This document shows positions 3,510-22,264 of a stretch of DNA of 23,703 nucleotides, piece by piece. How positions within the stretch are numbered: the first letter of the stretch is position 1; every line of letters starts with the position of its first letter. The DNA is taken from the IMG/VR virus record IMGVR_UViG_2585427753_000011; one strand, written 5' to 3'. A model generated the notes under the pieces. The model was not told where the DNA came from. It saw only the letters and a list, made by a program, of their open reading frames with translations, and searched no databases. Source of the stretch: a virus. Lineage: Duplodnaviria; Heunggongvirae; Uroviricota; Caudoviricetes. Position numbers and translations under genes: made by a program.

Positions 3510-5778
3510 AGCCTCCGGGCGTTTTGTCCCTCCGTCAGCATTTGCCGCAGGCACCGGTAAGACGTTTACCGGTGCTTATGCATGGAACGCGCCACGCGAG
3601 GCCGTCGGGCGCGAAAGACCCCTTACACGTGACGAGATGCGTCAGGTGCAAGGTGTTTTATCCACGATTAACCGCCTGCCTTACTTTTTGCGTTCGCTGT
3701 TTACTTCACGCTATGACTACATCCGGCGCAATAAAAGCCCGGTGCACGGGTTTTATTTCCTCACATCCACTTTTCAGCGTCGTTTATGGCCGCGCATTGA
3801 GCGCGTGAATCAGCGCCATGAAATGAACACCGACGCGTCGTTACTGTTTCTGGCAGAGCGTGACCACTATGCGCGCCTGCCGGGAATGAATGACAAGGAG
3901 CTGAAAAAATTTGCCGCCCGTATCTCATCGCAGCTTTTCATGATGTATGAGGAACTCTGCGATGCCTGGGTGGATGCCCATGGCGAAAAAGAATCGCTGT
4001 TTACGGATGAGGCGCAGGCTCACCTGTATGGTCATGTTGCTGGCGCTGCACGTGCTTTCAATATTTCCCCGCTCTACTGGAAAAAATACCGTAAAGGACA
4101 GATGACCACGAGGCAGGCATATTCTGCCATTGCCCGCCTGTTTAACGATGAGTGGTGGACTCATCAGCTTAAAGGCCAGCGTATGCGCTGGCATGAGGCG
4201 TTACTGATTGCTGTCGGGGAGGTCAATAAAGACCGTTCTCCTTATGCCAGTAAACATGCCATTCGTGATGTGCGTGCACGCCGCCAGGCAAATCTGGAAT
4301 TTCTTAAATCGTGTGACCTTGAAAACAGGGAAACCGGCGAGCGCATCGACCTTATCAGTAAGGTGATGGGCAGTATTTCTAATCCTGAAATTCGCCGGAT
4401 GGAGCTGATGAACACCATTGCCGGTATTGAGCGTTACGCCGCAGCAGAGGGTGATGTGGGGATGTTTATCACGCTGACCGCGCCGTCAAAGTATCACCCG
4501 ACACGTCAGGTCGGAAAAGGCGAAAGTAAAACCGTCCAGCTAAATCACGGCTGGAACGATGAGGCATTTAATCCAAAGGATGCGCAGCGTTATCTCTGCC
4601 ATATCTGGAGCCTGATGCGCACGGCATTCAAGGATAATGATTTACAGGTCTACGGTTTGCGTGTCGTCGAGCCACACCACGACGGAACGCCGCACTGGCA
4701 TATGATGCTTTTTTGTAATCCACGCCAGCGTAACCAGATTATTGAAATCATGCGTCGCTATGCGCTCAAAGAGGATGGCGACGAAAGAGGAGCCGCGCGA
4801 AACCGTTTTCAGGCAAAACACCTTAACCGGGGCGGTGCTGCGGGATATATCGCGAAATACATCTCAAAAAACATCGACGGCTATGCACTGGATGGTCAGC
4901 TCGATAATGATACCGGTAGGCCGCTGAAAGACACAGCTGCGGCTGTTACCGCATGGGCGTCAACGTGGCGCATTCCGCAATTTAAAACGGTTGGTCTGCC
5001 GACAATGGGGGCTTACCGTGAACTACGCAAATTGCCTCGCGGCGTCAGCATTGCTGATGAGTTTGACGAGCGCGTCGAGGCTGCACGCGCCGCTGCAGAC
5101 AGTGGTGATTTTGCGTTGTATATCAGCGCGCAGGGCGGGGCAAATGTCCCGCGCGATTGTCAGACTGTCAGGGTCGCCCGTAGCCCGTCGGATGACGTTA
5201 ACGAGTACGAGGAAGAAGTCGAGAGAGTGGTCGGCATTTACGCGCCGCATCTCGGCGCGCGTCATATTCATATCACCAGAACGACGGACTGGCGCATTGT
5301 TCCGAAAGTGCCGGTCGTTGAGCCTTTGACTTTAAAAAGCGGCATCGCCGCGCCTCGGAGTCCTGTCAATAACTGTGGAAAGCTCACCGGTGGTGATACT
5401 TCGTTACCGGCTCCCACACCTTCTGAGCACGCCGCAGCAGTGCTTAATCTGGTTGATGACGGTGTTATTGAATGGAATGACCAGGAGGTCGTGAGGGCGC
5501 TCAGGGGCGCATTAAAACGAGGTCTGAGAAGACCAAACCGTCAGCAAAGAAACGGAAGCCCGTTAAAACAGCATGAAATGGCACCATCGGCCAGACTGAC
5601 CCGGTCAGAACGAATGCAAATTACCCGTATCCGCGTTGACCTTGCTCAGAACGGTATCAGGCCGCAGCGATGGGAGCTTGAGGCGCTGGCGCGTGGAGCA
5701 ATTGTAAATTACGACGGGAAAAAATTCACGTATCCAGTCGCTGATGAGTGGCGGGGATTCTCAGCAGTAATGGAGTGA
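3499..5778 (+). CDS. A: Replication initiation endonuclease A (rolling-circle HUH endonuclease)
   Basis: Track ORF 3457..5778; start set at ATG 3499 (MAVKASGRF...) by resemblance to the P2 gpA N-terminus and coupling to the upstream stop. Contains a histidine-rich HUH-type motif (HHDGTPHWHMMLF). Confidence 0.9.
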   Translation: MAVKASGRFVPPSAFAAGTGKTFTGAYAWNAPREAVGRERPLTRDEMRQVQGVLSTINRLPYFLRSLFTSRYDYIRRNKSPVHGFYFLTSTFQRRLWPRIERVNQRHEMNTDASLLFLAERDHYARLPGMNDKELKKFAARISSQLFMMYEELCDAWVDAHGEKESLFTDEAQAHLYGHVAGAARAFNISPLYWKKYRKGQMTTRQAYSAIARLFNDEWWTHQLKGQRMRWHEALLIAVGEVNKDRSPYASKHAIRDVRARRQANLEFLKSCDLENRETGERIDLISKVMGSISNPEIRRMELMNTIAGIERYAAAEGDVGMFITLTAPSKYHPTRQVGKGESKTVQLNHGWNDEAFNPKDAQRYLCHIWSLMRTAFKDNDLQVYGLRVVEPHHDGTPHWHMMLFCNPRQRNQIIEIMRRYALKEDGDERGAARNRFQAKHLNRGGAAGYIAKYISKNIDGYALDGQLDNDTGRPLKDTAAAVTAWASTWRIPQFKTVGLPTMGAYRELRKLPRGVSIADEFDERVEAARAAADSGDFALYISAQGGANVPRDCQTVRVARSPSDDVNEYEEEVERVVGIYAPHLGARHIHITRTTDWRIVPKVPVVEPLTLKSGIAAPRSPVNNCGKLTGGDTSLPAPTPSEHAAAVLNLVDDGVIEWNDQEVVRALRGALKRGLRRPNRQQRNGSPLKQHEMAPSARLTRSERMQITRIRVDLAQNGIRPQRWELEALARGAIVNYDGKKFTYPVADEWRGFSAVME

Positions 5779-6107: not shown

Positions 6108-6482
6108 ATGGGGAAGCAAGGCAAAGGCAAAGGCAACAAAAATCAGGTTAAGGTTACGTGGGCTCAGGCGTGGCGGGATGTAATGATAAGAGCCATGTCT
6201 AATGGTCAGTTGATACCTATTACCATCAGTATTATTTTAATGATTGCTGCATGGAGGTTACCAAAAACAGACTTGTCCAATTTAGCCTTCTCTATTGTTG
6301 ATGGCTTTAAGGAGCATTCCTTGGTTGGTTGGGCTATCTCGGTAATAGTGGGTTTGGCTTGGTCTGCACATGCGCGAATCATGAGGCGCTGTTTTAGTTC
6401 CGAGGCACAGAGAATCGGTAACGAGAAAACAAAGTATCAACAAAGACAGACCACTCAAGCCTTGGGTACAAGTGATAAATAG
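6108..6482 (+). CDS. Cargo gene 1: small two-transmembrane-helix protein with Lys/Gly-rich N-terminus
   Basis: 124-aa ORF; two hydrophobic segments (LIPITISIILMIAAW; LVGWAISVIVGLAWSAHA). Weak SD, so start is uncertain (alternative Met at 6183/6195). AT-rich relative to backbone. Confidence 0.6.
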   Translation: MGKQGKGKGNKNQVKVTWAQAWRDVMIRAMSNGQLIPITISIILMIAAWRLPKTDLSNLAFSIVDGFKEHSLVGWAISVIVGLAWSAHARIMRRCFSSEAQRIGNEKTKYQQRQTTQALGTSDK

Positions 6483-6502
6483 TTGTTTATTTAGGAGTTA
6501 TT

Positions 6503-7060
6503 ATGCTGACAGTGCTGTTTTATGTGCTGTTGGGTTTAGGCGCAGCACACTTCATTTACGAGCGAATCATTTTGCCGTCCATCCGACTTCATTATAGAAA
6601 CCAATTGTTTGCGCTTCGTGATGTCGCTAGGAGGAAAATCATTGATGGAGGTTCCGATACTTCCATGCAAGCGGCAACACTTGTGCATGACTCATTGAAT
6701 AACGCTATCAATAGATTGCATTTACTCACGTTGCCAAACAAATTTCGTGCTCAAAAGCGTATGGCAGAAAACCATGCAATAAGGCAGAAAATTCGGCGTG
6801 AGATAGATGTTTTCAAACGCTGTGATGATAGAGAAGTTGTTGATGTACTGTTTAAATCCGGTCGGATACTTGAAAATGTACTGTTATTCAATAGCTTAAT
6901 GTTATTGCTTTACATGTTTCCATTTGTCCTTGCTGTATGGTTCTGTGTTAGGGTCATAAAGACAGCAAGTAGTTTAGTACAGTGGGTCAAAGGAAGAGAT
7001 TTAGAGGAAGCTATAATGCTGCTTCCTGATACTCAGGTTGAAAAGGTTGTATACGCATAA
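6503..7060 (+). CDS. Cargo gene 2: membrane protein with N- and C-terminal hydrophobic helices
   Basis: 185-aa ORF with strong SD (AGGAG ~5 nt upstream); hydrophobic N-terminus (LTVLFYVLLGLGAAHFIY) and C-terminal segment (LLFNSLMLLLYMFPFVLAVWFCV) around a charged helical region; 20 nt after gene 1. Confidence 0.7.
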   Translation: MLTVLFYVLLGLGAAHFIYERIILPSIRLHYRNQLFALRDVARRKIIDGGSDTSMQAATLVHDSLNNAINRLHLLTLPNKFRAQKRMAENHAIRQKIRREIDVFKRCDDREVVDVLFKSGRILENVLLFNSLMLLLYMFPFVLAVWFCVRVIKTASSLVQWVKGRDLEEAIMLLPDTQVEKVVYA

Positions 7061-7088
7061 AAATCACCCCTTAGGGGGTGATTTTTTT
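7061..7088 (+). terminator. Rho-independent terminator ending the two-gene membrane operon
   Basis: Stem ATCACCCC (7063-7070) / GGGGTGAT (7075-7082), loop TTAG, followed by a T-run; immediately after the stop at 7060. Confidence 0.8.
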
Positions 7089-7299
7089 ACATGACTTTTG
7101 ATTAGCTGACATTGTAAATCCGCATGTATCAGATGCATTGTTTTGCATGTGGAAATGGGTGTTTTCACTGCCAGCTATCGCTACATGTAGCAAAAACACG
7201 GGCTTAATAAGAAATCATTCTGCCATAAGGCATAACTTCCCCGCGTGCTCAGGTATTGACGTCATAGATATGGATCTTTTTTAATCAAGGTATGGTATT

Positions 7300-8247
7300 A
7301 TGAAGATATTTATTAGTTGGTCAGGTCAGGACAGCCTGGAGATAGCAAAAGTATTACGGGATTGGATACCGAATGTTATTCAAGTAGCTGAGCCGTACGT
7401 ATCAGCGGAAGATATTGATAAAGGCACTCGCTGGGCGACTGATATATCAAAGGAACTTGATGACTCTTCTTATGGGATTATTTGCCTTACAAAAAATAAT
7501 ATTAATGCACCGTGGATAAATTTTGAGGCGGGTGCTTTAGGTAAAAAGGTTGATAAGAGCCGGGTTAGTCCTTTCTTGTTTAAAATTAAACCATCTGAGA
7601 TAACAGGCCCAATATTACAATTCCAGTATACTCGTTCGGATGATAAGAACGATATTTTGAAGTTGATGTTGTCAATAAATAATCAAGCAGGATTTTTGAC
7701 TGAAGAACGCTTAACTAAAGCTTTCGAGCAATGGTGGCCAAGTTTAGAGCGTGAGTTAGATAACATTCAAGATATTAACCCTGTAGATAAAGATTCCACT
7801 AAAAAAACAAAAGGTGATTCGACTTCTGAGATACAAAATCTTTCCAAAATTGTTGAAAGTTTGCTGGATATTAGCCGAACAAATCACCAATTATTGCGTG
7901 ATCCAGCATCATTATTGCCAGAAGAATATGTTAGCAAAATAATAAACAGGGAAGGGCGTAAAGAAACTGTTTTAAAAATTGTAGCTTCTGATTTATTATC
8001 CATGCATCATTCACTAATTCGTGTAAAAAGAAGATTTATTCGTCGTGGTATTGATGAAACATCTAGGAGCGAGTTAATTGAATCATTAAATAAAATGATA
8101 ATGGATTGTTCTAGAGTAATCGCTCACTTAGATAATTATTGTGGGGCTTCATCAAACAATATGTTCAATAGTGCGCTTAGATTGCGGACCAGAAATTTAA
8201 TTGACATGATGGATGAGGAGGATGCAGAACGGGATGAAATGGAATAA
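7300..8247 (+). CDS. Cargo gene 3: TIR-domain protein with uncharacterised C-terminal helical domain
   Basis: 315 aa. N-terminal ~130 aa has TIR hallmarks: KIFISWSGQDS first strand, GIICLT strand, and W-x-x-F-E-A-G motif (WINFEAGAL) aligning by eye with the catalytic-Glu region of bacterial TIR NADases. C-terminal ~170 aa has no motif I recognise. Own transcription unit. Confidence 0.75.
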   Translation: MKIFISWSGQDSLEIAKVLRDWIPNVIQVAEPYVSAEDIDKGTRWATDISKELDDSSYGIICLTKNNINAPWINFEAGALGKKVDKSRVSPFLFKIKPSEITGPILQFQYTRSDDKNDILKLMLSINNQAGFLTEERLTKAFEQWWPSLERELDNIQDINPVDKDSTKKTKGDSTSEIQNLSKIVESLLDISRTNHQLLRDPASLLPEEYVSKIINREGRKETVLKIVASDLLSMHHSLIRVKRRFIRRGIDETSRSELIESLNKMIMDCSRVIAHLDNYCGASSNNMFNSALRLRTRNLIDMMDEEDAERDEME

Positions 8248-8321: not shown

Positions 8322-8791
8322 TATATCGCTTATAATGGGTATGTTATTTTTATTTTGATAAAATCATTAAAATTGTCGATGTTATATGAATGCACATGTA
8401 TTATTAATGTTAGAAGATTATGCCTGCTTACGGCTATTGTGCTGAATTCAACTATGAACGCATCAGTATTAAAATCGTTCCATGAAATGTTCTTCGTCTA
8501 CAGCAGATGATGGGCAACGAAAAAATGACGCTGAGTGAGTTGGTCGGGGAGAATTGTTAGAGGTATTTATGGAGTGGTTTAATAATATCGGTCAATCCTG
8601 AGTTGCAGCATCACATAGACGATAGGGAATCTCTCCAGTCGTTCTGGAATGGCAGCGTTGAACAACAAGCACAGCGAGGCGTTAGATGCCCATCAGATTG
8701 ACACAGAGGGTTTATGAATCGCTGGGATTTACTTAGTTTGAAAAATAATATATTTATATGTTTTTGTATTGTGTTTGTTAAGGAGTTTGGA

Positions 8792-8998
8792 TTGAAAAGA
8801 AAACTGATTTGTGTTATGGCTTTTTGGGGGGCGTTGCTGGCTGGTTGTAATGAGAGTAATAAAAAAGAAGTTGAGGGTTGTATTGAAAGAGGTGTCCAAT
8901 ATTTTATAGAGATTGGTTCTTACCCTAAATTAAGTGATGGGCGTGATGCTGTAAAAGTTGCTACTGAACGTTGTAATAGAACAATAACGGCTTTCTGA
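8792..8998 (+). CDS. Cargo gene 4: small predicted lipoprotein (lipobox LLAGC)
   Basis: Track ORF 8714..8998 has an improbable N-terminus. An in-frame TTG at 8792 follows AGGAG (8781-8785, 6-nt spacer) and gives (M)KRKLICVMAFWGALLAG-C: a basic n-region, hydrophobic core and lipobox Cys. Mature protein ~49 aa. Confidence 0.6.
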   Translation: MKRKLICVMAFWGALLAGCNESNKKEVEGCIERGVQYFIEIGSYPKLSDGRDAVKVATERCNRTITAF

Positions 8999-9000
8999 TA

Positions 9001-9918
9001 ATGGATTATACGAGCTATATAATAGGACAGCTTCAGGTTGAGGATATTATTGATGCAATTAAAGGCGTTAATAATACTAATGTCATAAAAGATTATGTGC
9101 TGCCTGTAGTATTACCAATTATATCTTCTGTGCTGAGTTACTTTATTGCAACTAGGTTGTTTTATCGGCAGGAGGACCTTAAAGCACAAAGAAGAAAGGT
9201 AAGCGTTGTAAATAAATGTATTTATGACTACTTTTCTGCAATGACAACGTTGTTGCAAATTAAAGGGAATTATTATGGTGGGGTAAGTATAAGTGAAAAT
9301 CCTATCGAGAGGGCTTTAGCTTTTCCTGTTGTGGTTTTTTCTGGTGCTCCTCTATCATCAGATTTAAGTGAGTTGGCCTGTATATTGAGTCAAAAGGGAG
9401 TAGGGAATAATAGAGAGCCAGCAAAGACTACTAACTGGGGGGATGCTTTTGCTGTTAGTGATATAGCAAGAAGGTTTAACAGCCTATTGGCTGCATTAAA
9501 TGTTAGGAATGATTTTGATGACACCTATAGAGGAATGATTATTGAATCAACAGGTTCACCTTTGCCTACGATGCGTTTTAAAAATGATGATATTGTTAAT
9601 GCTATAGGTAGTAATAAGGCAGCTTATTACATTGATATTACTGAGCAAATAATGATTATGATAGATGTTTTGTTGCTTGATATTAATCTGTTGCTCAAAG
9701 AGTTGCCATTGTATGCTGAATCGCTGTTTGACAAAAGAGTAATGCAAGAAGATTCAGGGATTCTTAAATTCAATGATTTGCACGAACGTTTTCCTCTACT
9801 TATGAAACCTGTAACGCCACCTTCGATTAAACTCATGTCTGATTATTTGGGGTACAGTGAAGATGAGATCTTACGACGCTATCCATACCCGTTCTTTAAT
9901 ATGCATGATTGTGAATGA
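9001..9918 (+). CDS. Cargo gene 5: 305-aa protein with one N-terminal transmembrane helix, no recognisable domain
   Basis: Starts 2 nt after the lipoprotein stop (translational coupling). Hydrophobic segment VLPVVLPIISSVLSYFIATRLF near the N-terminus; AT-rich codon usage. Confidence 0.7.
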   Translation: MDYTSYIIGQLQVEDIIDAIKGVNNTNVIKDYVLPVVLPIISSVLSYFIATRLFYRQEDLKAQRRKVSVVNKCIYDYFSAMTTLLQIKGNYYGGVSISENPIERALAFPVVVFSGAPLSSDLSELACILSQKGVGNNREPAKTTNWGDAFAVSDIARRFNSLLAALNVRNDFDDTYRGMIIESTGSPLPTMRFKNDDIVNAIGSNKAAYYIDITEQIMIMIDVLLLDINLLLKELPLYAESLFDKRVMQEDSGILKFNDLHERFPLLMKPVTPPSIKLMSDYLGYSEDEILRRYPYPFFNMHDCE

Positions 9919-10198: not shown

Positions 10199-11233
10199 TC
10201 AGCCGTTGTCAGTGTCCAGTGAGTAGTTTTTAAAGCGGATGACCTCCTGACCGAGCCAGCCGTTTATTTCCCGAATCCTGTCCTGTAACGGGATAAGTTC
10301 ATTGCGGACAAAGACCTTTGCCACTTTCTCAATATCGCCCAGCGACCCGACGTTTTCCGGCTTGCCACCCATCAACTGAAAGGGGATGCGGTGCGCGTCC
10401 AGCAGGTCAGCGGCGCTGGCTTTTTTGATATTAAAAAAATCGTCCTTCGTGGCCACTTCACTGAGCGGGATAATTTTAATGCCGTCGGCTTTTCCCTGTG
10501 GGGCATAGAGAAACAGGTTTTTAAAGTTATTGCGGCCTTTCGACTTCACCATGTTTTCGCGGAGCATTTCGATATCGTTGCGATCCTGCACGGCATCAGT
10601 GACGTACATGATGTATCCGGCATGTGCGCCGTTTTCGTAATACTTGCGGCGGAACAGCGTGGCCGACTCATTCAGCCAGGCAGAGTTAAGGGCGCTGAGA
10701 TATTCCGGCAGACCGTACAGCTCCTGATTAATATCCGGCTCCAGCAGGTGAAACACGGAGCCGGGCGCGAAAGGTGTCGGCTCGTTGAAGGACGGCACCC
10801 ACCAGTAAACATCCTCCTCCACGCCACGGCGGGGATATTTTGCCGGGGAGGGTTCCAGTCTGATGACCTTACCGGTGGTGCTGTAACGCTTTTCCAGAAA
10901 CGCATTACCGAATACCAGAAAATCCAGCACAAAGCGGCTGAAATCCTGCTGAGAAAGCCACGGGTGTGGGATAAACGTTGAGGCCAGAATGTTACGTTTG
11001 ACGTAAATCGGTGAGCTGTGATGCACGGCAGCACGCAGGCTTTTTGCCAGACCGGTAAAGCTGACTGGTGGCTCATACCATCTGCCGTTACTGATGCACT
11101 CGACGTAATCCAGAATGTCACGGCGGTCGAGTACCGGCACCGGCTCACCAAAGGTGAATGCCTCCATTTTCGGGGCGCTGGCGGTCATTTTTTTTGCCGC
11201 AGGTTGCGGTGTTTTCCCTTTTTTCTTGCTCAT
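10199..11233 (-). CDS. Q: Portal protein Q
   Basis: 344 aa, same length as P2 gpQ and recognisable sequence (MSKKKGKTPQPAAKK...); adjacent to cos. Confidence 0.9.
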   Translation of the reverse strand: MSKKKGKTPQPAAKKMTASAPKMEAFTFGEPVPVLDRRDILDYVECISNGRWYEPPVSFTGLAKSLRAAVHHSSPIYVKRNILASTFIPHPWLSQQDFSRFVLDFLVFGNAFLEKRYSTTGKVIRLEPSPAKYPRRGVEEDVYWWVPSFNEPTPFAPGSVFHLLEPDINQELYGLPEYLSALNSAWLNESATLFRRKYYENGAHAGYIMYVTDAVQDRNDIEMLRENMVKSKGRNNFKNLFLYAPQGKADGIKIIPLSEVATKDDFFNIKKASAADLLDAHRIPFQLMGGKPENVGSLGDIEKVAKVFVRNELIPLQDRIREINGWLGQEVIRFKNYSLDTDNG

Positions 11234-11979
11234 CAGTAAAACTCCAGAATGGTGGATGTCAGCGGGGTGCTGATACCGGCGGTGAGTGGCTCATTTAACA
11301 GGGCGTGCATGGTCGCCCAGGCGAGGTCGGCGTGGCTGGCTTCCTCGCTACGGCTGGCCTCATAGGTGGCGCTGCGTCCGCTGCTGGTCATGGTCTTGCG
11401 GATAGCCATGAACGAGCTGGTGATGTCGGTGGCGCTGCGTCCGCTGCTGGTCATGGTCTTGCGGATAGCCATGAACGAGCTGGTGATGTCGGTGGCGCTG
11501 CGTCCGCTGCTGGTCATGGTCTTGCGGATAGCCATGAACGAGCTGGTGATGTCGGTGGCGCTGCGTCCGCTGCTGGTCATGGTCTTGCGGATAGCCATGA
11601 ACGAGCTGGTGATGTCGGTGGCGCTGCGTCCGCTGCTGGTCATGGTCTTGCGGATAGCCATGAACGAGCTGGTGATGTCGGTGGCGCTGACGTCATATTC
11701 CAGACAGCCACGGCGGATGACGTCTTTTGCCTTGAGCACCATTGCGGTTTTCATTTCCGGCGTGTAGCGGATATCGCGTGCGGCGGGATAGAACGAGCGC
11801 ACGAGCTGGAACACGCCGACACCGAGGCCGGTGGCATCAATTCCGATGTATTCGACGTTGTATTTTTCGGTGAGTTTGCGGATGGATTCCGCCTGAGTGG
11901 CAAAGTCCATGCCTTTCCACTGGTGACGCTCAAGTATTCTGAATTTACCTCCGGCCACCACCGGCGGTGCCAGCACCAC
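11233..11979 (-). pseudogene. P: Terminase large subunit P, C-terminal remnant with internal tandem-repeat expansion
   Basis: 248-aa frame that opens at GTG with no upstream gene context. Reads as the C-terminal part of P2 terminase ATPase/nuclease, plus four extra 21-aa repeat copies. N-terminal ~400 aa absent; upstream sequence runs straight into endolysin K. Confidence 0.8.
11368..11682. repeat. Perfect 63-bp tandem repeat, 5 copies, in-frame within the terminase remnant
   Basis: GGCGCTGCGT recurs at 11368, 11431, 11494, 11557, 11620, then partially at 11683; on the minus strand this encodes SATDITSSFMAIRKTMTSSGR x5. Copies are identical by eye. Confidence 0.9.
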
Positions 11980-14383: not shown

Positions 14384-15169
14384 TTATGAGTGATTTTTAT
14401 TTGATGCTTTGTATTCTAAAACCTTCTTATTGGCGTAAAAGAATTTTGTATATGACAGGAATATAACCAGACCTGAAGTGAAATAGACGAGGGATAGTAT
14501 TAATAATGCTTTTTTGCGACTGTTATTATCTTTAATCTCCAGGCTTAACCATTCGGAGTCCTCCTCGTTTAGCTGTAAGAGCTTATTGCAGGCGATTTCA
14601 GGAAGTGTGTCTTTTATAAATACGTTTTGCAGTCTCTTGCAATCGGCAAGGCTATAAGTTTTATTAAATTCAACTGCTTTATTTTTGAAGGATAAAAGAA
14701 CTTTGTCACTATAAACATAGTACATCATGTTTTTATATGGTATGCCTATGGCATCCCTTACTATAACGGATTGTTCGTTGTGTATGTAACATGCGAGGAG
14801 AATGTAAAAAATACTGGCCAGAATTACAATTATTGTTTTAATTATGTGTGGTGGTTTTGTTATGTCACCCCAGATGCGAGTAAGGAAAAAATACGATGTT
14901 TTTAGTTTTCCATCAATCAGTCCCTGCTGTATCATTCTCACATTTTCAATGCCTGATACATTGATTCCGTTAATTATTTTAAATAGTTGAATGTCGCGCC
15001 ACTCGCGGTCAAGTCTTTTTAATTTTTTGTCTGAATATCCAAAATTGAAATAATGTGCAATAAGCCTCATAAGGTTACTTTTACCAAAGCTAAAAAATGC
15101 TAATACTGCAAAGCTACAAAGGAAAAAAACGATTAGCCCCCACACATTAGTCACATTATAGCTGACCAT
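14384..15169 (-). CDS. AT-rich moron at the P2 orf30 position: membrane protein with ~3 TM helices, unknown function
   Basis: 261-aa ORF antisense to the late operons between S and V; hydrophobic segments near aa 9-28, 111-131 and 228-247; Lys/Asn/Ile/Phe-rich. Confidence 0.7.
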   Translation of the reverse strand: MVSYNVTNVWGLIVFFLCSFAVLAFFSFGKSNLMRLIAHYFNFGYSDKKLKRLDREWRDIQLFKIINGINVSGIENVRMIQQGLIDGKLKTSYFFLTRIWGDITKPPHIIKTIIVILASIFYILLACYIHNEQSVIVRDAIGIPYKNMMYYVYSDKVLLSFKNKAVEFNKTYSLADCKRLQNVFIKDTLPEIACNKLLQLNEEDSEWLSLEIKDNNSRKKALLILSLVYFTSGLVIFLSYTKFFYANKKVLEYKASNKNHS

Positions 15170-17145: not shown

Positions 17146-17668
17146 TTCGCGACTGCTGCCGACCGGCTCATCACCGCTTGAGGTCGCCGCCGCAAAAGCC
17201 TGTGCGGAAATTGAAAAAACACCGGTCAGTATTCGTGAGCTGTGGAACCCGGACTCCTGTCCGGCAAATCTGCTGCCGTGGCTGGCGTGGGCGTTTTCGG
17301 TCGACAGGTGGGATGAAAAGTGGCCGGAAGCGACAAAACGCGCCGTTATCCGCGATGCCTATTTCATCCACTGTCATAAAGGCACTATCGGCGCAATCCG
17401 ACGCGTGGTGGAGCCGCTCGGCTATCTCATCAACGTGACGGAGTGGTGGGAAAACAGTGACCCGCCCGGCACCTTCCGGCTTGATATTGGTGTACTGGAA
17501 AGCGGTATCACAGAGGCAATGTATCAGGAAATGGAACGGCTGATTGCCGATGCCAAACCTGCAAGCCGCCACCTTATTGGCCTGAACATTACCCGGGACA
17601 TTCCCGGCTATCTGTTCGCCGGTGGTGTGGCTTACGACGGCGATGTAATTACGGTTTACCCCGGATAA
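17138..17668 (+). CDS. I: Baseplate protein I
   Basis: 176 aa, P2 gpI length and position; overlaps J end. Confidence 0.9.
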   Translation: MSDSRLLPTGSSPLEVAAAKACAEIEKTPVSIRELWNPDSCPANLLPWLAWAFSVDRWDEKWPEATKRAVIRDAYFIHCHKGTIGAIRRVVEPLGYLINVTEWWENSDPPGTFRLDIGVLESGITEAMYQEMERLIADAKPASRHLIGLNITRDIPGYLFAGGVAYDGDVITVYPG

Positions 17669-19727: not shown

Positions 19728-20255
19728 ATGCAGCATTTAAAAAATATTACTGCGGGTAATCCAAAAACTGTTGCCCAATATCAACTGACAAAAAATTTTG
19801 ATGTTATCTGGTTATGGTCCGAAGAGGGAAAAAACTGGTATGAGGAAGTAAGTAATTTTCAGGAAGACACGATAAAGATTGTTTACGACGAGAATAATAT
19901 AATTGTCGGCATCACCAGAGATGCTTCAACGCTTAACCCTGAAGGTTTCAGCGTTGTCGAGGTTCCTGATATTACCTCCAACCGACGTGCTGATGACTCA
20001 GGTAAATGGATGTTTAAGGATGGTGCCGTGATTAAGCGGATTTATACGGCAGATGAACAGGAGCAACAGGCAGAATCACAAAAAGCAGCTTTACTTTCCG
20101 AAGCGGAAAGCGTTATTCAGCCACTGGAACGCGCTGTCAGGCTGAATATGGCGACGGATGAGGAATGCGCACGACTGGAGTCATGGGAACGCTACAGCGT
20201 TCTGATCAGCCGTGTGGATCCTGCAAATCCTGAATGGCCGGAAATGCCGCAATAA
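19728..20255 (+). CDS. G: Tail fiber assembly chaperone G
   Basis: 175 aa, immediately after H, P2 gpG length. Confidence 0.85.
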
Positions 20256-20476
20256 GTTGTATAAGCTCTGGTGTGAGATTACATATCTATGGCACAGAGT
20301 AAAGCCTAATCTGACAGGCCGCTCTGTGTCTGGAGTAGATTTTAGTAAAGCATTATTTTATTAGTGCAAATTCTAATCAATACATTTTATGTATATGATA
20401 TCCTACGGACTTTAATGACTTGGTTTAGGCTAACCAGATAACACTGAAGGAATATTTTTGATAATTAAGGTGCGGT

Positions 20477-21070
20477 ATGTTTACTAAGCGACGATTAAAA
20501 AATATTAACTGGGAGGCAAGTTCAGTGATTCTTGCTATGGTTCTCTTTGTTGGAAATATATTTTATACAAATCATCGTGATGATATAAGCATGGAGGCTG
20601 AGAGGGACAGTATCAGAACAATGTTTGCATATGAAATCGCTAATAACCATCGCGCTCTCACTTTTCTTGATAAAACGAGACATATTGGCTTTGACGAAAA
20701 TTCGGAGCATTTTGTTGGCGAGCCTTTTGCCATTAATGTCAAATCATTAGGGGGACCTCGCTTACAGATTGCATTAAACCAGACTGATAAAGTGTTTAAA
20801 TCCTACTTCGGCGAATTAAGTAAGCTTGATAAAGAGGATGTTACTCTTCTTATGGACTATTACCATGAGCAAAGCATCCTGCTGGAGCGTGTAAAATCTA
20901 CGTTACAGAAGATGAAAAGTGGTAATGATATTAAAGTTGATATTGATGGTTGCTTATTAGAAGAACACTTCATGAATGAGCTTAATCTTTCTAATATTTT
21001 GCTTAAACGCTATAGCTATTTATTATCACAACACGCTAAGGAACATAAAACAAAAGATTTACATAATTGA
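20477..21070 (+). CDS. AT-rich moron at the P2 Z/fun position: 197-aa protein with one N-terminal TM helix, unknown function
   Basis: ORF between G and the FI remnant, where P2 carries Z/fun; AT-rich flanks; hydrophobic segment SSVILAMVLFVGNIFY near the N-terminus. Confidence 0.65.
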   Translation: MFTKRRLKNINWEASSVILAMVLFVGNIFYTNHRDDISMEAERDSIRTMFAYEIANNHRALTFLDKTRHIGFDENSEHFVGEPFAINVKSLGGPRLQIALNQTDKVFKSYFGELSKLDKEDVTLLMDYYHEQSILLERVKSTLQKMKSGNDIKVDIDGCLLEEHFMNELNLSNILLKRYSYLLSQHAKEHKTKDLHN

Positions 21071-21258
21071 TAATCTGCTAATGGTTATTCATGGGGTAAC
21101 TATGTTTTATATGTAATCCAGCCCAGATGAATTATTGATTCTGGATAATAACCGCAGAGCGGCATATACCCTGACAGGCAAATGTCCGCTTCTTGCTCAA
21201 AGCAGACTGTCAGATTTGATAACTTTTGGGCTATGTAAACTGTCAGTCGGAAAATGAG

Positions 21259-21276
21259 TGTGTACAAATCAGGACA
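21259..21276 (+). promoter_or_regulatory. Candidate Ogr-dependent late promoter element (TGT-N12-ACA) upstream of the FI remnant
   Basis: TGTgtacaaatcaggACA at 21259-21276, ~125 nt upstream of the FI start codon; dyad of the type described for P2 late promoters. Confidence 0.4.
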
Positions 21277-21399
21277 GGCGGGGGGAATGCCCGCATTTTC
21301 TTTATCTGTTGTTTCATCCACTGACCAGCCAGGTCAAATAGCGTCTCATGTACTACCCAACGGAAAATAGTTGCACCCATTAACCACGGAGTTAAACGG

Positions 21400-21513
21400 A
21401 TGAGTGACTATCATCACGGCGTGCAGGTGCTGGAGATTAACGACGGCACCCGCGTCATTTCCACCGTATCCACAGCCATTGTCGGCATGGTCTGCACGGC
21501 TAGCCTCCCGTAA
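21400..21513 (+). pseudogene. FI: Tail sheath FI, N-terminal fragment (~35 codons) ending at a deletion junction
   Basis: ATG 21400 with GGAG SD encodes [35 protein letters not shown], which I recognise as the P2 sheath N-terminus; frame then hits TAA at 21511-21513. Confidence 0.75.
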
Positions 21514-22264
21514 CAGGCTGGAAGCCAGTGTCGCTCCGTCACTGGCCGGAATTAAAATCCCGCACATCGACCAGTCGCAGGAGTCCGATGCGAAATTCCT
21601 GACCCGTCTTGCTGAACGCAACGGCGGTGAGGTGTCGGTAAAAATGGGAAAACTGCTGTTTCTCAAAGCGGGGCAGGGGGGGACGGTCAGCGGTAAAAAA
21701 ATCCCGCAGATTACCATCACCCGCAGCGACGGCGACCGTCATCATTTTGCGATTGCTGACCGTGGAGCCTACACAGGCGTAACGGCAAAGTGGTTACACA
21801 CCAAAGACCCGAAGCCGCAAAAGCAGAAGGTAAAACTGAAACGCAAAAAGAAAGAGAAACACCTGCGCGCACTGGAGCACCCGAAAGCGAAACCGGTCAC
21901 GCAGAAGAAAGAGCCAAAAGTACCGGAAGCGCGCGAAGGTGAATACATGGCCGGTGAGGCTGACAACGTTTTTGCCCTGACCACGGTATATGCCACGAAA
22001 GCACAGGCCATGCGCGCCGCTCAGGCGAAGTGGGATAAACTGCAACGGGGTGTTGCGGAGTTCTCCATCAGCCTGGCTACTGGTCGGGCAGATATTTACA
22101 CGGAAACGCCGGTCAGAGTGTCAGGCTTTAAGCGCGTCATAGACGAGCAGGACTGGACAATCACTAAGGTGACACATTTTCTGAATAATAGCGGCTTCAC
22201 GACGTCCCTGGAGCTTGAGGTCAGGCTTTCTGATGTGGAGTACGAAACAGAAGATGATGAGTGA
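21506..22264 (+). pseudogene. D: Tail protein D, C-terminal ~250 aa, N-terminally truncated
   Basis: Track ORF 21404..22264 is an artefactual frame over the FI fragment; from about [22 protein letters not shown]... it reads as the C-terminal part of P2 gpD, ending ...EYETEDDE. No start codon or SD. Confidence 0.75.

Follow-up and report, generated by a model that had tools for sequence, protein, structure and literature searches.

A P2-like prophage with a foreign gene at its Z/fun locus raises the question of whether this gene is a relative of P2 Fun(Z), and whether it excludes phages. The locus is recognized as a defence hotspot (Vassallo 2022, PMC9519451; Moura de Sousa 2026, PMC13586616), and three validated defence systems have been located at fun (Vassallo 2022, PMC9519451). 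The window, i.e. the whole 23,703-nt stretch of DNA that was analysed, holds at this locus an AT-rich block with a single open reading frame. A preliminary description, made from the letters alone, took the product for a divergent protein at the Z/fun position and a candidate exclusion determinant.

The window represents the right two-thirds of a P2-like prophage, the end of which adjoins fieF. Its gene order includes an integrase, A, the portal gene Q, baseplate and tail-fibre genes, G and ogr. Only three low-GC islands are present, and each corresponds to one of the classical P2 moron sites (the gpA-gpQ 'TO' region, the orf30 site and the Z site). The gpA-gpQ hotspot encodes 2TM-TIR, 1TM-TIR and TIR-TM proteins of the PADLOC type TM+TIR, as described for phage AC1. 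The prophage is defective. A sheath start had been placed directly behind the AT-rich block; the FI start codon is indeed found at 21400, but the sheath gene itself is reduced to a stub of 35 codons (21400–21504, plus strand), with a deletion junction behind it that leads into the 3′ part of gene D. No homology to intact FI genes extends past 21504. The translation comprises 35 FI residues, two out-of-frame residues (LP) and a stop, and the frame after the stub matches only positions 106–304 of the Phage_GPD profile. The terminase gene P is truncated as well.

The block follows the tail-fibre assembly gene G (19728–20255, plus strand), which matches Pfam Caudo_TAP with E = 6.5e-35 and for which homologous phages and genomes give the annotation "tail fiber assembly protein". 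Coordinates and content had been described correctly: between gpG and FI lies one ORF (20477–21070), and the GC content of the block is 34.5% vs 48.3% for the whole window. Several smaller ORFs overlap the block, none of them with support. Alignments with P2 (NC_001895), PhiR44_1, EC58, EC30 and the 'proviral Z-region' records AJ512683 and AJ512676 divided the interval into cargo and backbone. The long AT-rich flanks attributed to the gene belong to it in part: 20341–20476 (GC 28.7%) and 21071–21184 (GC 38.6%) are cassette, as is the ORF (GC 35.0%), whereas 20256–20340 and 21185–21399 are conserved P2 backbone, common to phages with unrelated cargo. The block is an exchangeable cargo cassette of the P2 Z/fun hotspot, spanning approximately 20341–21184 between conserved Z-region inverted repeats. 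Its location between gpG and FI, the bounding repeats, the foreign composition and the variable content are those of P2 Z-region cargo cassettes, in agreement with the moron-type insert, a low-GC cargo in the gpG-FI slot, that had been proposed for this position.

The left Z-region boundary (20228–20340, plus strand) corresponds in alignments to P2 sequence and to the left inverted repeat as annotated in AJ512683 and AJ512676. It contains the repeat core AATCTGACAGGCCGCTCTG at 20308–20326 (plus strand) and a stable hairpin at 20291–20330 (−21.3 kcal/mol, z = −3.96). The right boundary (21183–21273, minus strand) maps to the annotated right inverted repeat of AJ512683 and is kept in all P2-like phages aligned. 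Its core AATCTGACAGTCTGCTTTG, read on the minus strand at 21198–21216, has the palindromic form GTCCGCT-N10-AGCAGAC. Throughout the window, the core pattern AATCTGACAGNCYGCTYTG has exactly two matches, in inverted orientation, with 0.09 expected by chance.

Downstream of the right repeat, a scan detected a terminator-like GC hairpin with a T-run (GCGGGGGGAATGCCCGC ATTTTCTTTA) at 21278–21304 on the plus strand (−11.7 kcal/mol, z = −2.05). It is conserved in P2, PhiR44_1, EC58 and EC30, and it is the first terminator-like plus-strand site outside coding sequence downstream of gpG and the ORF. The pF late promoter and the 5′ untranslated region of FI (21305–21399, plus strand) follow, assigned by alignment to the annotated features of NC_001895. 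An Ogr/activator site at about 21305–21333 corresponds to the P2 activator binding site 17555–17583. The activator motif TGT-N12-CCA at 21310–21327 is situated about 53–55 nt upstream of the inferred transcription start near 21371, which aligns with the P2 start site 17626–17628. Two further statements on this region held: the non-coding sequence downstream of the ORF, given as about 330 bp, measures 329 bp to the FI start codon, and the dyad suspected of being a late promoter aligns with the annotated activator and start sites of P2 pF, so that the spacer carries the FI late promoter. In this prophage pF drives nothing useful: after codon 35 the FI sequence gives way, out of frame, to the 3′ part of gene D.

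P2 Fun(Z) (NP_046777), a lysogenic conversion gene for T5 exclusion and FUdR sensitivity, occupies the same gpG-FI slot between the same conserved inverted repeats, and both genes are single, non-essential, low-GC cargo. The resemblance ends there. Fun has 528 aa and is encoded on the minus strand; the cassette protein has 197 aa, is encoded on the plus strand and differs in architecture. On alignment to P2 Z/fun, near-identity, which would have made the gene known rather than novel, was absent. The best BLASTP alignment to NP_046777 had an E-value of 2.2 over 32 residues, and membership in the Fun(Z) family was rejected. The description as a divergent Fun was consequently given up; the 197-aa gene is, judged from these alignments, a replacement cassette and not a relative of Fun. 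P2 and the cassette-bearing phages share only the backbone flanks in the Z region. The cloned fun(Z) gene blocks T5 according to the annotation of NC_001895, but the T5 phenotype is not transferable by homology, since the 197-aa protein has no detectable similarity to Fun. Exclusion of T5, or of a T5-like phage, by a diverged Fun homologue of altered specificity is therefore a highly improbable reading. It draws on the shared locus and on the composition of a published lysogen panel in which T5 was not included (PMC9122126); the sequence, the size, the strand and the architecture all speak against it.

The cassette sequence is already known from databases and is not new as such. The 1144-bp interval is 96.5–97.1% identical in 13 phage records representing eight sequenced P2-like phages, namely PhiR44_1, P24E6b, D8, 12W, P24B2, P22H1, AC1 and SIDE7. 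The cassette is present in 203 of 5426 complete E. coli genomes, 200 of which contain a single G-cassette-FI block. A pF/FI junction occurs in 1685 of the 5426 genomes, indicating P2-like prophages in about a third. Among 1946 P2-type pF/FI places, 209 contain the cassette, which fills about one in ten Z-region slots. A scan of species-representative genomes yielded 3 loci only, too few for statistics.

The ORF is a real gene under purifying selection. Pairwise dN/dS values were 0.10–0.24 against homologues at 62–98% identity. The family keeps a length of 195–199 aa across genera, from Escherichia to Pantoea and Salmonella, and residues R47, A51, Y52, E53, N57, L117, M126, Y128 and Y129 do not vary, even among relatives of 25–38% identity. 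A non-functional ORF in decaying foreign DNA would be in keeping with the defective prophage of the window and with the truncated or IS-interrupted gene copies that occur in some genomes. The selection signature, the full-length frame in six or more genera and the intact copies in viable phages make this barely credible, and the reading is largely refuted already.

The cassette-specific 5′ region (20341–20476, plus strand) has no counterpart in P2, EC58 and EC30. A promoter-like block includes TATGAT at 20394–20399 and a tool-called ATAACA-16-GATAAT at 20438–20465; in the promoter scan of the 5′ region, promoter-like hexamers did not exceed shuffle expectation. The segment 20369–20436 is 75% identical to sequence upstream of the Pantoea homologue. 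The gene may have a promoter of its own here, a putative assignment. A Shine-Dalgarno sequence, AAGGTG at 20467–20472, precedes the ATG. The cassette-specific 3′ region (21071–21184, plus strand) is likewise absent from P2, EC58 and EC30, is present in PhiR44_1, and has homologous sequence 3′ of the gene in two other contexts, a Pantoea island and an E. cloacae plasmid. This spacer had no Rfam match and folded no better than its shuffles. An Rfam search of the flanks returned a single sub-threshold match, IS009, located inside gpG.

Expression by read-through from the late V-to-G operon would lead to a different interpretation, an accessory function in the phage's own lytic cycle, such as lysis timing or the blocking of progeny re-adsorption or injection into the lysing cell. 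The orientation of the ORF matches the late operon, and no plus-strand terminator-like site separates the gpG stop codon from the ORF, the first non-coding one being the hairpin at 21278–21304. Members of the family, however, also reside in P4 satellites, on a plasmid and in chromosomal islands without a late operon upstream, and a Providencia P2-like prophage has its copy at another hotspot, in the early region. Viable P2 phages exist with other Z cargo, in part encoded on the opposite strand. A lytic-cycle role is very unlikely on these grounds.

The 197-aa protein (plus strand, 20477–21070) starts with a basic N-terminus, followed by a hydrophobic segment at residues 14–30 and an all-helical bundle. 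It matches PHROG 3829 over the full length (E = 8e-135, residues 1–197 on profile positions 1–197), a group annotated as 'unknown function'. NCBI records name it 'hypothetical protein' or 'lysogenic conversion protein'; the latter, a PGAP family label, specifies no function. Pfam, NCBIfam and PADLOC searches of the protein gave no match (PADLOC-DB v2.0.0, 0 families). When 19 family members were searched singly against the same three collections, nothing consistent was obtained; one isolated weak match to LmuA appeared in one of the 19. A profile search against PDB sequences had as its best match an uncharacterized protein with E = 0.022, which is not meaningful. Comparisons with viral and solved structures gave no sequence or fold match beyond generic helical bundles, and a structural match to ClyA stays at this generic level. 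A HMMER search of 1.84 billion cluster representatives returned 18 matches, all from Enterobacterales, and no bridge to a larger family. In the literature searched, no paper on the family was found, none mentions WP_042964150, and none links the name 'lysogenic conversion protein' to a P2 Z-cassette gene.

The protein had been described as having a single transmembrane segment, and residues 14–30 are the only hydrophobic segment, without another candidate in the 197 residues. The segment is marginal, with summed Hessa values of 0.2–1.8 kcal/mol. Its N-terminal flank has a net positive charge in 18 of 19 members, and in the 12 close relatives the C-terminal flank is, without exception, net negative or neutral. 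Because of this charge distribution, an N-in/C-out topology is predicted by the positive-inside rule. In the AlphaFold2 (AF2) model a helix spans residues 12–66. The modelled fold, a membrane anchor bearing a four-helix bundle of generic type, says nothing specific on mechanism.

The relatives occur in varied genomic contexts. In Providencia, the gene occupies the gpQ-gpA hotspot of a P2-like prophage, and in Proteus mirabilis ATCC 29906 it adjoins a portal-gene fragment. In Pantoea ananatis and Kosakonia oryzendophytica it is found directly downstream of the primase in P4-like satellites; the family is common to P2 phages and P4 satellites. The Serratia fonticola copy adjoins GajA and GajB (E = 2e-281 and 4e-226) of a Gabija system, and the Salmonella copy a methyltransferase and restriction endonuclease pair of type II restriction-modification. 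A Pantoea sp. harbors the gene within an AlpA island, and in Enterobacter cloacae it is carried by an IncFII plasmid, next to a transposase of the IS91 family. The relatives, all in Enterobacterales, always occur as a single gene, with other neighbours in each context. Published defence hotspots among these positions are the P2 tail locus, the gpA-gpQ locus and the P4 primase-att locus (PMC9519451; PMC13586616; bioRxiv 10.1101/2024.10.15.618418). The P2 tail locus accounts for 16% of P2 defence systems and the primase-att site for 7% of P4 systems (PMC13586616). Not all hotspot cargo serves defence, however: P2 hotspots also hold toxins, partition systems and tail-fibre modules (PMC9122126; bioRxiv 10.1101/2024.10.15.618418). 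In all, the family recurs in defence hotspots or islands: in the P2 Z and gpQ-gpA hotspots, twice at the P4 primase-att site, beside Gabija and beside type II restriction-modification.

A defence or exclusion role is proposed mainly because the family recurs in published defence hotspots. The exclusion idea remains plausible on this recurrent placement in hotspots and islands, rather than on homology to Fun. The reading tentatively preferred, somewhat short of an even chance, is a single-gene phage-exclusion or defence determinant of the superinfection-exclusion type that acts at an envelope step; the role is taken from genomic association and the mechanism from the architecture only. The single cassette gene, probably under its own promoter, would yield a 23-kDa protein, the basic N-terminus of which would stay in the cytoplasm. 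One helix, about residues 12–30, would cross the inner membrane, and the remaining approximately 165 residues would form a four-helix-bundle-like domain in the periplasm. There, the protein may disturb the genome entry of superinfecting phages or another of their steps at the envelope. It presumably acts alone, as its neighbours differ in every context.

This mode of action would resemble that of other membrane-tethered superinfection-exclusion proteins. Known examples are Imm and Sp of T4, gp15 of HK97, SieA of P22, the lactococcal Sie2009 and Ltp of the Streptococcus thermophilus phage TP-J34, the domain of which is all-helical. By analogy, the 197-aa protein may be grouped with them as a small, single-gene, phage- or prophage-encoded product with an N-terminal anchor and a small extracytoplasmic domain. 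It differs in having no sequence or fold match to any viral or solved structure beyond generic helical bundles. Chemoreceptor periplasmic sensor domains of the four-helix-bundle type (Tar, PcaY, MCP2201) are also among the closest known systems.

Two of the phages with the cassette, AC1 and SIDE7, originate from the study of Rousset et al. 2022 (PMC9122126). Their lysogens were challenged with lambda, T4, P1, 186, CLB_P2, LF82_P8, AL505_P2 and T7. Protection was reported only for AC1, and the TIR system alone reproduced it; for SIDE7 the text implies a negative result without stating it (PMC9122126). On this eight-phage panel the cassette gene gave no visible extra protection, a weak and indirect argument against a broad activity.

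The membrane anchor could also belong to an abortive-infection effector or sensor. Such a protein would sense the infection and depolarize or permeabilize the inner membrane, possibly as an oligomer of its conserved transmembrane helix, and the infected cell would die or arrest, without a block to phage entry. This is possible but unlikely: the protein offers only one marginal transmembrane helix and neither a sensor nor an enzymatic domain, no context supplies a partner gene, and the resemblance to ClyA is confined to the generic helical bundle. The gene is, moreover, intact in about 200 genomes without an antitoxin-like neighbour.

Decidedly doubtful, too, is a lysogenic conversion unrelated to phages, in which the protein would serve as an orphan immunity factor against a periplasm- or membrane-acting toxin (bacteriocin, T6SS or CDI/Rhs effector) or as an envelope fitness factor. 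A small, membrane-tethered and probably periplasmic protein has the typical format of an immunity protein, and the PGAP label, which leaves the function unspecified, would accommodate the idea. An Rhs-WHH toxin and SUKH immunity locus is present about 4 kb away from the Pantoea island copy, and a gene for ShlB/FhaC two-partner secretion about 3 kb away from the copy on the E. cloacae plasmid. An adjacent cognate toxin gene is missing in every context, however, and the gene mostly resides in defence hotspots of phages or satellites or beside Gabija or restriction-modification genes. With 18 representatives in 1.84 billion, the family is also far too narrow to track a widespread toxin family.

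The cassette in the window is ordinary hotspot cargo, and with the 197-aa family it contains a reasonable candidate for a new exclusion factor of the single-gene kind. PD-T4, PD-T7 and PD-lambda (Vassallo 2022) and the Rst systems (Rousset 2022) follow the same hotspot logic on the same kind of mobile element. The 197-aa protein and its relatives differ from the validated P2/P4 hotspot systems in having no consistent PADLOC match. P2-like prophage hotspots are a major reservoir of defence genes. If the protein is an exclusion factor, a domain-less, envelope-acting, single-gene family would be added to the defence catalogue, and the 'defence-less' fraction of P2 described in PMC13586616 would be accounted for in part. 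Otherwise, the gene would count as an ordinary moron.

In layout, the cassette agrees with the Z-region cassettes of the P2-like coliphages in AJ512676 and AJ512683, the repeats of which were identified from their GenBank features. A left repeat is followed by an AT-rich spacer, one ORF in either orientation, a second spacer, the right repeat and pF. These Z-region cassettes were reportedly the subject of a study by Nilsson, Karlsson & Haggard-Ljungquist in 2004. The difference lies in the cargo ORF; no AJ512xxx record in the phage collection encodes the 197-aa protein. How cargo is exchanged at hotspots still needs elucidation according to the authors of PMC13586616. The sharing of the family between P2 and P4, together with the repeats kept in the island and on the plasmid, offers leads on this exchange. 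The repeats could be the recombination sites behind the rapid cargo swapping at the P2 tail hotspot, because they delimit the cassette in P2 phages, the Pantoea island and the E. cloacae plasmid alike. A Tn3-type interpretation of the inverted repeats was dropped; the P2 copies do not have the terminal GGGG...TAAG pattern. That the family is at once a new single-gene anti-phage determinant at the periplasmic face of the inner membrane and a discrete cassette bounded by inverted repeats of approximately 30–38 nt with a palindromic core would be the most far-reaching interpretation, and it is considered rather improbable as a whole.

Outside P2, the cassette appears to move as a repeat-bounded unit, because the palindromic repeat core is shared and bounds the copies in the island and on the plasmid; the sequence comparison covers these two cases. 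The core common to the contexts is the palindrome GTCCGCT-N10-AGCGGAC. Repeat-like sequences in inverted orientation are present on both sides of the island and plasmid copies, and none of 200 shuffles reached the observed score. Nucleotide homology of the Pantoea island and the E. cloacae plasmid to the window extends from the ribosome-binding region through the gene and the 3′ spacer. It ends inside the right repeat, at position 21213 for the Pantoea island and at 21208 for the E. cloacae plasmid. The Pantoea copy also shares a 5′ block with the window.

The Z-region cassette, which holds the 197-aa ORF, is bounded by inverted repeats (window 20228-20340 and 21183-21273) with the palindromic core GTCCGCT-N10-AGCGGAC. 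Homologous cassettes flanked by repeats of the same type are present in a Pantoea AlpA island (repeats at L010 5777-5811 and 6690-6740) and in the Enterobacter cloacae plasmid p3442-FRI-1 (L022, about 3887-3930 and 4689-4740). The plasmid copy adjoins an IS91-family transposase. The recurrence of the repeats around homologous cassettes in the island and on the plasmid suggests that cassette and bounding repeats travel as one unit. The conserved left repeat contains a hairpin directly 3′ of the gpG stop codon (window 20291-20330). It is very stable (-21.3 kcal/mol, z = -3.96) and has no adjacent T-run. Covariation lends it no support because the sequence is invariant among the aligned phages. 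The hairpin may act as an RNA 3′ end stabiliser, as a recombination site or in another role.

Relatives of the 197-aa protein are encoded in further contexts. P4-like satellites of Pantoea ananatis (L015 5402-6001) and Kosakonia oryzendophytica (L019 8001-8579) carry the family gene after the primase, with about 61% identity. A Providencia P2-like prophage harbors it in the gpQ-gpA hotspot (L013 6001-6600), with about 30% identity. The presence of one family in both P2-like prophages and P4-like satellites is notable, since exchange of defence genes between P2 and P4 has been reported as almost never occurring (PMC13586616). The Salmonella homologue is located between a lambdoid prophage end and fieF (region L011 5170-9188), with a paired type II methylase and endonuclease next to it. 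The chromosomal fieF-pfkA neighbourhood is common to this locus and the flank of the P2-like prophage in the window.

The window prophage carries accessory genes at two other sites. Three proteins from the gpA-gpQ ('TO') hotspot (window 6108-8247) were matched by PADLOC to 2TM-TIR, 1TM-TIR and TIR-TM (E = 2e-58 to 2e-118). By this assignment they represent the same TM+TIR system type as that validated from phage AC1 (Rousset, 2022; PMC9122126). Two ORFs of the same hotspot (window 8714-8998 and 9001-9918) had no match in Pfam or PADLOC. The third low-GC island, flanked by S and V, corresponds to the orf30 site of P2. Its minus strand (window 14384-15169) carries an ORF that is a further uncharacterised moron; the 261-aa product was likewise matched by neither Pfam nor PADLOC.

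The prophage itself is defective. Of the terminase gene P, only the C-terminal 247 codons remain (window 11233-11979). At the FI/D junction (window 21400-22264), FI ends after codon 35 (21504) and runs on, in a different reading frame, into the 3′ portion of gene D. The prophage thus lacks the remainder of FI, all of FII, E, T and U, and the 5′ portion of D. Its accessory cassettes have stayed intact, in keeping with published observations that defence cargo outlasts mobility genes.
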